Assembly (NCBI GenBank): GCA_963719945.1
Contig: CAVRDX010000001.1
Coordinates: 320,001 to 384,000 of the forward strand
Direction of reading: 5' to 3'
Length of the DNA stretch: 64,000 nucleotides
Source: an uncultured Thermoplasmata archaeon
GTDB lineage: Archaea > Thermoplasmatota > Thermoplasmata > UBA10834
The translations under genes and the position numbers were made by a program. Shown here one piece after another: positions 50,256-54,010 of this stretch (the first letter of the stretch is position 1; every line of letters starts with the position of its first letter). Below the pieces are notes generated by a model that saw only the letters and a list, made by a program, of their open reading frames with translations, searched no databases and had not been told where the DNA came from.

Positions 50256-52168
50256 ATGTCCAGCTCTTCTTCTCTGAACGCGACAACTGGGCACGGGCCC
50301 AGGCATTTGCTGCAATGGGTGCACTTCTCGGCATCGATGATCGCTCTACCATCCAGGTGCAGGGCACCGAACTCGCATCTTCCGATACATATCCCGCAGC
50401 CAGTGCAATTCATCGCCTTGAACACAATCTCTTTGGTGATCAAAGCTCTTCGATCGAGTTCCTCTTCCGTTTTGCCTCTTATCATGACTGGTCCTTCACC
50501 GAATACCGTCAGGCCGCGCACCTCTACGATCTCTCCATCTGGTGATGTCGTAACTGTGCCTATCGCATTCATGAGGTTGGCGACCCTATCCATGTCTAGT
50601 CGTTTTGTGAATACACCTTCCATGCTCAATCCTTCGACACATGGGCTGTAACCTTTCGTGCTTCTGAACTCGAGGGGTGTTTCGCTCTCCTGGGTTGATT
50701 CATTCGCCTTCAGGTCGATGCCTTTCATGGACAATTCGCTCAAAATCGATTCCGGCACCTTTCGCCATCTCCATAGGTCGTATTCTCTCCATGCGTCGGG
50801 CATGCCTTTCCTCTTAGAGTATTCGTCGAGCAGCGCGTCCCATCTCCCATATTCCTTGCTTATATCCCTGACCTTCTTCAACTCGGCGAGATCCGTCGCT
50901 GGACACAAGAAACAACCTATTCTTTCCAACCCCTGGCGGTACAGGGGATTGTAGTTCGCCTTCCTCGAAAAGAGATAGATCCAGACATGGAGGGCGGTCC
51001 ATTTCTGAATCGGTGATGCGCCAAGCTGGTTCGGGGTCCAAGGATTCCTCCATATGCGTCCCTTGCCCGCCCTGAGTTCTGATTCGTAAGCACGTTGTCC
51101 TATGAATGAAAGAACACCCTTCGGGAAATTCTTCTGGATTATCCTCGTGGCCGGCCCCAGCTTGCATGTCTTGCAGCACCATCTGTAATCCTTTGCCGGA
51201 GGGCCGAAGAGCGAGACATTCCTCCAAAAAGCGTCCCCTGCTTCTTCCTTGACTATTTCCAGAGAATATTCCTCAGCGACCTCCTCGACGTTCCTCCTGG
51301 TCTCCTGGAACTCGAGTCCCGTGTCTATGAACATGAGCTTTGGTCTGATTCCAGCCTCGAGGACCAACAACAATGTCGCGAGACTATCTTTTCCGCCGCT
51401 GTAGGAAACTGCGATGGGCAGGGGATTCTCGCTCACCACCCTGCTGATGAAAGTCTTGGCCTCGCTCACTCTACGTTCCAAGACCTCTTGATTGGCAACA
51501 AGCACATCATCCCAAGTAACCTCAGCGCCTCGTGGTTCATGGGCTTCATTCGACACGACCCACCTTGTCTTGACCGCGGTTCCCTTCGTGCCTGGTCTGA
51601 GCATCTCCTCTGCAGACATCTTCGCGACGCCTACTGAGACCGGTTGTCTTCCCTTGTCCAGAACCAATACGTCGTCTCCCTGCCTGATCCCTGGGTCGCA
51701 TTCGAGAACCCCAACCGCCAATGTGCTCGCCTTTCTATTCCTGATGGGATCGAGAGCTCCGTCATCGACGATGACCCAGCTCTTTGAGATCAGTGGTGCG
51801 AGGAGTTTGGCGCTGAGCGGCTTGAGCAGGAATCTGTTCCCGTGCACTATGTCGAACCTGATTGCGCCCGCGACCTCCCCGTCAAGGATTATCTCATCCA
51901 TGCGGTCCAGGTCTGGCGCTTTGTTCAAAAGAACGATCTTTTCAGACGGTATCAGGGCATCTCCGGTTCCGGGGCCGAACTGTCGGTTCACGATCTCTCG
52001 GATGTACTGAATATCTGATTCGAAAGCGGGCCTCGCATCTCCCGGAGGAGTGATCTGGAGCCCTCTCGTATCCGAGCCGCATCTCCCACAAGACCTCTCC
52101 TCGAGTACCGGAAGGTTGCAGGCATCGCACCAGCGAAGGTGGATCTTGCCAAGTCGTATCTCTGCCAC
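50252..52168 (-). CDS. PAPS-reductase-family protein with PUA and 4Fe-4S ferredoxin domains
   Basis: N-terminal Zn-finger (WCDACN..CGRCG), PUA domain, SYSGGKDS, RWCCKTCK, RIGCFLCP, two C-terminal ferredoxin motifs. Confidence 0.9.
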   Translation of the reverse strand: MAEIRLGKIHLRWCDACNLPVLEERSCGRCGSDTRGLQITPPGDARPAFESDIQYIREIVNRQFGPGTGDALIPSEKIVLLNKAPDLDRMDEIILDGEVAGAIRFDIVHGNRFLLKPLSAKLLAPLISKSWVIVDDGALDPIRNRKASTLAVGVLECDPGIRQGDDVLVLDKGRQPVSVGVAKMSAEEMLRPGTKGTAVKTRWVVSNEAHEPRGAEVTWDDVLVANQEVLERRVSEAKTFISRVVSENPLPIAVSYSGGKDSLATLLLVLEAGIRPKLMFIDTGLEFQETRRNVEEVAEEYSLEIVKEEAGDAFWRNVSLFGPPAKDYRWCCKTCKLGPATRIIQKNFPKGVLSFIGQRAYESELRAGKGRIWRNPWTPNQLGASPIQKWTALHVWIYLFSRKANYNPLYRQGLERIGCFLCPATDLAELKKVRDISKEYGRWDALLDEYSKRKGMPDAWREYDLWRWRKVPESILSELSMKGIDLKANESTQESETPLEFRSTKGYSPCVEGLSMEGVFTKRLDMDRVANLMNAIGTVTTSPDGEIVEVRGLTVFGEGPVMIRGKTEEELDRRALITKEIVFKAMNCTGCGICIGRCEFGALHLDGRAIIDAEKCTHCSKCLGPCPVVAFREEELDI

Positions 52169-52203
52169 AAGCTTCTGGAAAGTGCCTACGTATTATAGAC
52201 TTT

Positions 52204-52212
52204 CCACTCAGA
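52204..52212 (+). repeat. Target-site duplication, left copy (CCACTCAGA)
   Basis: Identical to 53587-53595 and abuts the left TIR. Confidence 0.9.
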
Positions 52213-53586
52213 GGTTCTGTCAATCTTCGGATGGTGTTGTCGATGGTGCCTTTCCAGATGACATGAATATCTCGTCGATCGCACGAGTAGCATGCATGTA
52301 GCCAGGTAGCGGATATGTTCCTATCCAGATGCTTTCTTCGATGCTCCACAGAGCAGTCGTGTTCCACATTCAGGGTGAGCTACCATCTGAGGTTAGGGCG
52401 CTCATGGTAGGTTTTCGCCTGGCAGTCAACTCCGCGATCAGAGCCGGTTTGCATGCGAGAGTGACCTCCAGGAACGCCCTGGCGAAGCTGGCGTACAAAG
52501 ACTTCAGGAAGGAGCATCCGAACATGTATGCCCAGCATCTGGTATCCTCGTTCGAAGTCGCGGGTTCGATACTCAAGAACCTCCGAAGGCGTTGGGGGAA
52601 GGGTCCAATTCATCGCATTCCATATGTGCGGCGACTGATGATGAAGGCGGAGAACCAGGCATACAAGCTCGATCGAGAGAATGGCGTGGTCGACCTTCCG
52701 ATACGAGCAGGATGTCATGTGAAGCTGAGGCTCGTCCTGAGCGATTACCATCGCGTCTTTCTGAACGACAGAACTCTCTCCCTTGGTTCACTGACACTCC
52801 TATCTGACAGGGTCATAATAGTCTTCAGGAAGAGTCCACCTAAATCATACATTCCAGAGATGGCCCTGTCTCTGGATACCAATGAGCGGAGCTTGGACGG
52901 CGTGTTCCTGAGCAAAGGGGAAAGTGCGCCAGTTCAAGCAGCATATCCCGATGTCGCGATAATCCAGGCACGGCATCACGATCGACGTAAGCGTCTTCAG
53001 AAGAGGAAGGCGCACGATCGACGGACATCTAGACGGTTGTGCAACAAAGAGGGGAGGAGGGAACGCCATCGGATCGAGTACCGCATGCACCAGGTGGCCA
53101 ACGCAGTGCTCGGCTTCGCGGAGGAGCATAAATCGACGATTGTGCTCGAGGATCTGAATGGTATGATCGGGCGTAAGCGTGGCAAGTCGCTCAACAGACG
53201 TTTGAGTTCGTGGCCTCGGAGGAAGCTGCACAACATCATCGAGTACAAGGCAGCCTGGAAAGGCGTGCCAATCATCAAGGTCGATCCATACAACAGCAGC
53301 AGGAGGTGCCCGATATGTGGGAGATTGAATCATTCCCGAATGGGCGCCGAGTTCGAGTGTGAGTGCGGTTGGCGTGCGGACAGGCATGTCAACGCCGGCA
53401 TAAACCTGCTGCAGACAGCCTTCCCGGATGGGATGGCAGGGGGCTTACGGTTCAGCCCCGGCGCGTTCCAGCATGACGTGGTGATGACCCTCTACGACCC
53501 ATTCATGGGCGCACGGTCGGAGCCGAATGGGACGAGTCGATCGGTGGGGCGGTCATGATGACCACCACCCGATTATTGACAGAACC
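52213..53586 (+). mobile_element. Non-autonomous TnpB-carrying insertion element with TIRs and a 9-bp TSD (1,374 bp)
   Basis: GGTTCTGTCAAT (52213-52224) and ATTGACAGAACC (53575-53586) are perfect inverted repeats; CCACTCAGA flanks both ends; the only gene is tnpB. Confidence 0.9.
52329..53558 (+). CDS. tnpB: TnpB-family RNA-guided endonuclease
   Basis: RuvC-I LSLDTNERSLD, bridge region RMHQVAN, RuvC-II IVLEDL, IEYKA, SSRRCPICG..FECECG zinc finger, RuvC-III DRHVNAGINL. Confidence 0.93.
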   Translation: MLSSMLHRAVVFHIQGELPSEVRALMVGFRLAVNSAIRAGLHARVTSRNALAKLAYKDFRKEHPNMYAQHLVSSFEVAGSILKNLRRRWGKGPIHRIPYVRRLMMKAENQAYKLDRENGVVDLPIRAGCHVKLRLVLSDYHRVFLNDRTLSLGSLTLLSDRVIIVFRKSPPKSYIPEMALSLDTNERSLDGVFLSKGESAPVQAAYPDVAIIQARHHDRRKRLQKRKAHDRRTSRRLCNKEGRRERHRIEYRMHQVANAVLGFAEEHKSTIVLEDLNGMIGRKRGKSLNRRLSSWPRRKLHNIIEYKAAWKGVPIIKVDPYNSSRRCPICGRLNHSRMGAEFECECGWRADRHVNAGINLLQTAFPDGMAGGLRFSPGAFQHDVVMTLYDPFMGARSEPNGTSRSVGRS

Positions 53587-53595
53587 CCACTCAGA
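53587..53595 (+). repeat. Target-site duplication, right copy (CCACTCAGA)
   Basis: Identical to 52204-52212 and abuts the right TIR. Confidence 0.9.
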
Positions 53596-53596
53596 C

Positions 53597-54010
53597 CTAC
53601 TTGAGCGCCTTGAGCTGCTTTACGACAGATTCGACGGCGTCCTTCGCCCTCTCTATCCTGTCCTCTGCCTGGAGCCTGCTCATGCCTGGGCCCGTGATGC
53701 CGAGGCCGACGGGTTTCTCGAACTCGACCGCGAGATCGGTGATTTTCCTCGCTGCTTGGCCTATGACGATCTGGTCATGTGCAGTCTCACCCTCTATGAC
53801 CGCGCCAATCGTCACGACGCCATCAATCGATTTATCCTTCAGAAGCGTCTTGATCGCCAGAGGCATATCGAAGACGCCCGGGACCATCATGATTCTGGAT
53901 ACATCTACATCCAGGAATTTCGCATGCTCCTTCGCCCTTTCAAGCATCATCTGTGTCAGGTCGAAATTGAATTCGCTGCACACGATGCCAATCTTGTACT
54001 TGCTTGCCAT
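53597..54010 (-). CDS. ribH: 6,7-dimethyl-8-ribityllumazine synthase
   Basis: SEFN, VPGVFDMP, GAVIEGETAH, KPVGLGITGP. Confidence 0.95.
   Translation of the reverse strand: MASKYKIGIVCSEFNFDLTQMMLERAKEHAKFLDVDVSRIMMVPGVFDMPLAIKTLLKDKSIDGVVTIGAVIEGETAHDQIVIGQAARKITDLAVEFEKPVGLGITGPGMSRLQAEDRIERAKDAVESVVKQLKALK

Follow-up and report, generated by a model that had tools for sequence, protein, structure and literature searches.

A TnpB element with inverted ends and a 9-bp target-site duplication at a promoter edge in a Thermoplasmata archaeon: a covarying RNA scaffold and a predicted self-protective guide geometry

Introduction

TnpB has been seen as tied to the scarlessly excising insertion sequences IS605 and IS607, and its pairing with DDE transposases in prokaryotes is described as rare and of unclear benefit (PMC13565253). 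How, then, could a TnpB that takes its guide from the flanking DNA serve a transposon that duplicates its target site, with a duplication that varies from copy to copy? The question is raised by a 1374-bp element (52213-53586) whose sole gene is tnpB, in a 64,000-nt stretch of DNA from an uncultured Thermoplasmata archaeon; this whole stretch is called the window, and element coordinates are positions in it. An earlier reading of the same DNA, here called the original prediction, had proposed that an omega RNA overlapping the 3' end of tnpB and the right end of the element carries a guide that begins with the duplication, and that, with a T-rich target-adjacent motif (TAM) to the left, TnpB would act against element-free alleles alone. 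Our analysis suggests, as the best explanation, that the element is a non-autonomous member of an IS6-like family with tnpB and an omega-RNA scaffold as cargo, and on this basis we put forward a tentative model of self-protection. The family is not a curiosity of one genome, as its TnpB is found in 32 of the 49 genomes of the order and in 1075 clusters at E <= 1e-10 in a large protein collection.

Results

A mobile unit with inverted ends

The element is a real mobile unit, moved as a unit of inverted ends and target-site duplication. Its ends, 24 nt each, are complementary at 88% of positions and perfectly so over the outer 12 nt, and the terminus motif GGTTCTG and the subterminal CGGGTG motif, as seen at the left end, are kept family-wide; tnpB ends 28 nt before the right end (Table 1). 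On both sides stands the same 9-mer, the right copy at 53587-53595 being an exact direct repeat of the left. The empty site that had earlier been reconstructed on paper exists in relatives: the orthologous intergenic site is element-free in two genomes of the same genus (L122 and L123), each with a single 9-mer, and in four more distant genomes. One contig of relatives, which bridges 52206 to 53599 with 11 other letters, is a related species' empty site and not that of this strain. Inverted ends of 24 nt and a 9-bp duplication, confirmed by these empty sites, place the element outside IS200/IS605 and IS607.

Comparison among copies gives the same picture. Four copies, about 87% alike, are present in this genome; two of them are intact, and the three that keep both ends have different 9-bp duplications. 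Across the family, the flanks of different copies are unrelated, and the duplications match at 8 or more of 9 positions in 14 of the 27 complete copies, being 9 bp long in every case with matching flanks. There are also miniature derivatives of 350-410 bp, several per genome, in which both ends and the omega-RNA region are kept and tnpB is deleted (L134 in G006:C5; L135 in G040:C4; L136, L139 in G005). Within genome G040, the same 45-nt intergenic gap that holds the window element carries an independent deletion derivative of ~350 bp, consisting of the left end and the omega region (L124, C9 at about 269.8-270.2 kb), in the same orientation and with its duplication displaced by 1 base. The gap (window 52200-52212 / L124) is a re-used hot spot.

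A covarying RNA scaffold ending at the right terminus

When 48 right ends are aligned, the sequence is near-invariant from about 53403 to the terminus, after which unrelated flanks follow, and this stretch is the best conserved of the element (mean pairwise identity 0.84-0.87, compared with 0.5-0.8 elsewhere). RNAalifold on 44 sequences predicted 45 pairs, of which 18 show compensatory double changes; these 18 are spread over five helices, and most lie far from the inverted repeat. With a proposed pseudoknot included, 97.3% of cells pair, compared with 27-45% when the partners are slid against each other, and the observed covariation was reached by none of 500 shuffles. The comparison thus shows a covarying RNA scaffold of 184 nt, predicted to be that of an omega RNA, which takes in the 3' end of tnpB and runs precisely to the right terminus; an overlap with the end of the gene and with the right end had been part of the original prediction. 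Besides several stems, its architecture includes a hairpin (53440-53459) and, at the end, a long stem-loop. The loop at 53449-53453 could form the pseudoknot with the last five bases, a pairing that is nearly invariant and possible in every member. The hairpin first noticed at 53541-53572 is the inner part of the terminal stem-loop; its loop contains the stop codon of tnpB (53556-53558), and it reaches into the right inverted repeat. That it is more than a chance palindrome is indicated by the 44 members, in which the same terminal stem-loop architecture is kept in every subfamily from stem sequences that differ between subfamilies.

Since conservation stops exactly at 53586, a flank-derived guide beginning with the duplication is the natural reading, and such a guide is the most likely one on the aligned sequences. 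It would be tempting to see the duplication itself as part of the TAM, as has been proposed for Fanzor elements. We rejected this, for the 9-mers vary between copies and the conserved motif sits outside them; being variable, the 9-mer cannot be the TAM and must be counted as guide. The junctions have the geometry that had been claimed for them. On the left, beside the TAM candidate, the contiguous match to the predicted guide consists of the 9 duplicated bases and no more, while on the right the whole guide matches, with the element terminus (..AACC), and not TT, in front of the match.

The four copies in this genome are all that nhmmer returned there, with no additional omega-only copies. Two are degenerate (G000:C3:308280-309621 and G000:C1:22251-23303); one of them has a frameshift and a 33-bp deletion that removes the pseudoknot hairpin, and the other an internal deletion of ~320 bp. 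In two copies the stop codon of the hairpin loop reads TCA, and the frame continues to the element end.

A strict one-sided motif at the upstream edge of promoters

The T-rich left flank of the window element is shared by other insertions. Among 51 non-redundant left flanks, T occupies position -12 (counted from the left terminus) in 46 and position -11 in 50, and A stands at -10 in 4; the pair is thus spaced from the left end by the 9-mer plus 1 nt. Both Ts together occur in 46/51 flanks, compared with 6.4% of the intergenic background (p = 2e-49), and the miniatures follow the same rule at their left end. The mirrored AA was found in 3 of 45 right flanks, which is chance level, and a symmetric target (TTN-N9-NAA) was rejected on this ground. 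A motif shared before the duplication, which the original prediction would lead one to expect across copies, is therefore there, on the left side and at chance on the right.

Further out, an A/T-rich hexamer lies at -21 to -16 in 36/51 left flanks, and among the sites with TT a TATA-like hexamer is found in 34 of 46, where 14% would be expected (p = 1e-19). Outward open reading frames of at least 80 aa start 44-50 nt from the left end in 18 of 50 cases and from the right end in 3 of 42. Moreover, the TATA-like hexamers that stand upstream of open reading frames elsewhere in this genome have an A-run at exactly the matching offset. For these three reasons the left flank can be read as the reverse complement of a promoter directed away from the element, made of a transcription factor B recognition element (BRE) and a TATA box. 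On this sequence comparison, TT is the complement of the BRE A-run, and the promoter in the window is that of the PAPS-reductase/PUA gene. Copies usually stand at the upstream edge of such a promoter.

The pattern of insertion in the family (window 52168-52212; left flanks L012-L113) resembles promoter-directed insertion. The TATA box was also considered as a driver of tnpB itself and rejected, as there is no BRE-like A-run on its far side and the gene starts lie on the opposite strand.

A related transposase and elements without TnpB

Remnants of a DDE transposase adjoin family-type ends at three loci (L137, L142 and L144), and a metagenome scan with a transposase fragment as query returned 52 loci. 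One of them holds a complete transposon of 3499 bp (L168:106-3604), bounded by the family's inverted ends and flanked by a perfect duplication of 9 bp. Its genes encode a transposase of 402 aa with SWIM, HTH and DDE_Tnp_IS240 domains (PF13610, E = 5e-20), together with an SfiI-like restriction enzyme and an N6/N4 methylase, so that the same chassis moves a restriction-modification system. Thus the ends are common to elements that encode DDE_Tnp_IS240, as expected of an IS6-like family, but the duplication is 9 bp and not the 8 bp typical of IS6. A second end of the transposase loci was found for L168 and deletion derivatives only. Around 48 metagenomic transposase loci, TnpB was absent out to 3 kb, and no composite element with both transposase and tnpB was seen there. 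Among the 49 genomes of the order, PF13610 occurs in 4, truncated or unrelated.

The transposase-proximal ends of these TnpB-less elements gave about ten independent sites. Five, L168 among them, have the geometry of TT plus 9-mer, four of these with a TATA-like box; the other five lack this geometry. L133 shows a second element inserted into the same 9-mer next to a resident end, with a promoter alongside. Because TnpB-less sites have the same geometry and L133 was re-used beside a promoter, promoter-edge targeting belongs at least partly to the transposition system.

Facing ends exactly 9 nt apart were observed at L133:3384-3394, L163:3611-3621, L169:4275-4285, L170:2540-2550 and L186:1914-1924; at L133 the 9-mer recurs at the second element's far side, as if the resident copy's duplication had been re-used by the second insertion. 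In L148, L151, L160 and L164 (at about 2150-2410), a conserved, divergent small zinc-ribbon open reading frame and a palindromic A/T-rich intergenic region lie upstream of an intact transposase gene, and many loci of this group stand at one site before an RHH-ftsZ gene pair.

Does the TT pair belong to the transposase or to TnpB?

The TT pair might be just the footprint of promoter-directed insertion, either by an IS6-like transposase or through selection in a compact genome. In that case the real TAM would be another motif or be absent from most sites, and the self-protective geometry would be coincidental, although an omega RNA may still exist. We consider this unlikely, yet it is the alternative to be taken most seriously. 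The TATA-like box at a fixed offset, the clustering of divergent gene starts near the left end, the matching A-runs at the genome's own promoter-like sites and the TnpB-less elements with the same geometry, L168 with its perfect duplication among them, all speak for a footprint, and so does the re-use of sites, both in G040, where the same 45-nt gap was hit independently at a distance of 1 nt, and in L133, where a second element shares the 9-mer. However, the TT pair is kept far more strictly than the TATA box and is still found at 12 of the 15 sites without one. It is also stricter in TnpB-bearing copies (46/51) than in TnpB-less ones (5/10; Fisher p = 0.007). Furthermore, a promoter-like context lies to the left in 34 TnpB copies and to the right in 1, an orientation bias that is not obviously explained by a symmetric DDE transpososome. 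In elements lacking TnpB it is mostly the other type of end that faces the promoter; in several subfamilies this end is similar to the right end of TnpB elements, with an ambiguous result for the window's subfamily and a small sample. A one-sided TAM filter explains both the strict TT and the 34:1 orientation, and a symmetric DDE transpososome does not.

TT is thus an insertion preference, since TnpB-less relatives show the same geometry at about half of their sites, and it may in addition be the TAM. What stands of the earlier proposal of TTT as TAM is the strict, one-sided motif at the TAM position; what qualifies it is that the same motif is part of a promoter-like target used by TnpB-less relatives as well.

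A TnpB with a rearranged RuvC site

The protein is homologous to TnpB and has the zinc-ribbon (TNB) domain; phmmer matched it to the TnpB structure 9nzp at E = 2e-11 and to several Cas12f structures. Its active site departs from the D-E-D triad of TnpB and other OMEGA effectors. The Asp of RuvC motif I and the Glu of motif II are present and the zinc ribbon is intact, but the Asp of motif III is replaced by His (DRHxNA; the codons of ADRHVN lie at 53376-53393), which in the phmmer alignments falls on the catalytic Asp of the solved TnpB and Cas12f structures. This His is kept in 118 of 120 relatives, with the RuvC-I Asp and RuvC-II Glu conserved. The nearest outgroups have His or Gln at the position and more distant relatives have DRDxN. 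No recognisable inverted ends or duplication were found around single copies of outgroup TnpBs at 44-47% identity.

Such a D-E-H site falls into the category of 'rearranged RuvC-III' in a previous survey, which argued that D-to-H branches, some of them archaeal, probably retain activity, and that inactivated TnpBs tend towards regulatory roles (PMC10691335). The latter tendency and the family-wide replacement of a catalytic residue, with His or Gln already in the nearest outgroups, lend some weight to the idea that this TnpB is not a nuclease but binds DNA under RNA guidance, labelling the empty allele, or the promoter edge, for some other function. That function could be a Cas12k-like one, in which the transposase is brought in for an RNA-guided re-insertion, or a local effect on transcription. 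Nevertheless, we regard a non-nuclease as improbable. The first two catalytic residues are conserved, and other nucleases of the RNase H fold use His at the corresponding position. Also, this is a mobile element found in several copies and between unrelated flanks across many genomes, and with one of three catalytic residues changed it does not belong to the dead, immobilised TldR-like class. Together with the published argument for D-to-H branches, these points make cleavage by the D-E-H TnpB plausible on its sequence.

A model of self-protection

We propose that the transposase would supply the choice of promoter-proximal sites, and that read-through transcription across the right end would yield a guide made of the duplication followed by unique flank. 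TnpB would read TTN as its TAM, adding a strict left-side requirement for TT. Only the undivided, element-free allele would join the TAM to the full protospacer; it would be bound and probably cut, and a copy of the chromosome that has the element would then serve as template for its repair. The occupied locus itself would be spared at both junctions, the left having the TAM with 9 matching bases and the right a full match without the TAM. From work on ISDra2, more than 9 matched bases are reportedly required for targeting.

Taken as a whole, this model of a self-protective TnpB on an IS6-like chassis, with promoter-edge insertion, a guide of duplication plus flank, a TTN TAM and the empty allele as the only target, may well be right, but we hold it tentatively and would not call it probable. 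The further step, by which the complement of the BRE, TTN, has been adopted as TAM, so that each promoter-edge insertion generates by itself both guide and TAM against its own empty allele for an RNA-guided drive or retention with a D-E-H RuvC, is doubtful, if possible.

Several observations weigh against the model. The third catalytic Asp of RuvC is His throughout the family, so that cleavage of empty alleles is an assumption. TT coincides with the BRE of a promoter-like target that TnpB-less elements, L168 included, use too, and successive insertions re-use the same 9-bp site, a sign that the site is chosen by the transposase. The sample of TnpB-less sites is small (about 10). This genome, 87% complete, yielded neither PF13610 nor a transposase with family ends, and because it is without such a transposase the window copy is non-autonomous and probably inactive here. 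Finally, the copies are ~13% diverged and give no indication of recent activity.

The reading of the conserved 3' structure as something other than a guide-RNA scaffold, either coding sequence plus transposase-binding DNA or an mRNA 3' stabiliser or terminator, is very improbable: the region does code for the C-terminal tail of TnpB and overlap the right inverted repeat, and an Rfam scan of 51800-54000 matched no family, but compensatory changes fall mainly at a distance from that repeat, the miniatures lose tnpB yet retain exactly the scaffold region, and its position and length agree with published TnpB omega RNAs.

The coordinates of the features are collected in Table 1. The neighbours of the element, from open reading frames and Pfam, are the PAPS-reductase/PUA gene (minus strand, GTG start at 52168) and ribH (minus strand, stop at 53597).

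Table 1. Features of the tnpB element and its flanks, in window positions
Feature	Position	Strand	Basis
TATA-like box of the divergent PAPS-reductase/PUA gene	52190-52199	-	A/T-rich hexamer at the same offset in 36/51 family insertions
TTT, candidate TAM and complement of the BRE A-run of the neighbouring promoter	52201-52203	+	TT here in 46/51 independent insertions
Left copy of the 9-bp target-site duplication	52204-52212	.	exact repeat of 53587-53595; single-copy in empty sites L122, L123
Left terminal inverted repeat	52213-52236	+	sequence comparison of ends
tnpB, 409 aa	52329-53558	+	Pfam Cas12f1-like_TNB (PF07282), E = 8e-19
Predicted omega-RNA scaffold, 184 nt	53403-53586	+	covariation, 44 sequences
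Terminal stem-loop, 45 nt	53536-53580	+	44 members folded individually; outer helices (10-11) covary
Right terminal inverted repeat, also 3' end of the scaffold	53563-53586	+	sequence comparison of ends
Predicted guide template	53587-53606	+	inference: first 9 nt are the right duplication copy, the rest unique flank (3' end of ribH region)

Discussion

The abundance of this family gives the geometry described here some general interest, as it offers a concrete way in which a guide could be derived from the flank despite a variable duplication. If the model is true, it would amount to RNA-guided drive or retention in a form suited to a transposon that duplicates its target. Independently of it, the data reveal a family of transposons whose insertions hit the upstream edge of archaeal promoters, precise to a single base. 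This promoter-edge targeting is the most unexpected by-product of the analysis, and to our knowledge no prokaryotic parallel for insertion of this kind and precision has been described. In addition, the conserved D-to-H change in a proliferating family makes it a natural test case for cutting by 'rearranged' TnpBs.

Comparison with known systems

The carriage of TnpB inside DDE transposons is already known, and it is the IS6-like chassis with a 9-bp duplication that is the new variation. Solo TnpBs inside DDE-type inverted ends, with the gene ending within 250 bp of the terminus, and with mobilisation in trans, have been published in outline (Altae-Tran et al. 2023, PMC10691335; reviewed in PMC13565253). 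The window element is like these solo and DDE-associated TnpBs in its inverted ends, in the closeness of the 3' end of its gene to the terminus (28 nt here) and in being presumably mobilised in trans by the transposase of sister elements. It differs in the partner, which is IS630, ISL2 or IS1031 in the published cases (PMC10691335, PMC13565253) and here an IS6-like transposase with SWIM and DDE_Tnp_IS240 domains and a 9-bp duplication. Neither PMC10691335 nor PMC13565253 describes a variable duplication as the start of the guide, a TAM candidate lying beyond that duplication, or a promoter-edge target.

With IS200/IS605 elements of the ISDra2 type, for which a model of transposon retention exists, the window element shares a predicted omega RNA that runs over the 3' end of tnpB to the right end and would take its guide from the flank, a left-flank motif at the TAM position and a joined empty site that would be the only full target. 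It lacks their Y1 or serine recombinase, their asymmetric subterminal hairpins and their excision without a scar; it has instead inverted ends and a 9-bp duplication, which would form the first 9 nt of the predicted guide, and a RuvC-III His in place of Asp.

Fanzor proteins in eukaryotic DDE transposons, which are homologues of TnpB, are alike in being carried between terminal inverted repeats and target-site duplications and in an omega RNA that reaches the terminal repeat. Their duplications are fixed (TA or TTAA), with the 5' copy assigned to the TAM and the 3' copy to the scaffold (PMC13565253).

The IS6 family, of the IS26 and IS240 type, resembles the present one in ends that start with GG, an IS240-type DDE domain, short elements and derivatives that carry cargo, and the family ends also resemble the end of IS26. 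The differences are a duplication of 9 bp where the classical one is 8 bp, a transposase of about 400 aa that carries a SWIM zinc finger at its N-terminus, insertion at the promoter edge and a cargo of either TnpB with omega RNA or a restriction-modification pair. A full-text literature search returned, among its ten best matches, no paper that names the IS6 family together with TnpB or omega RNA.

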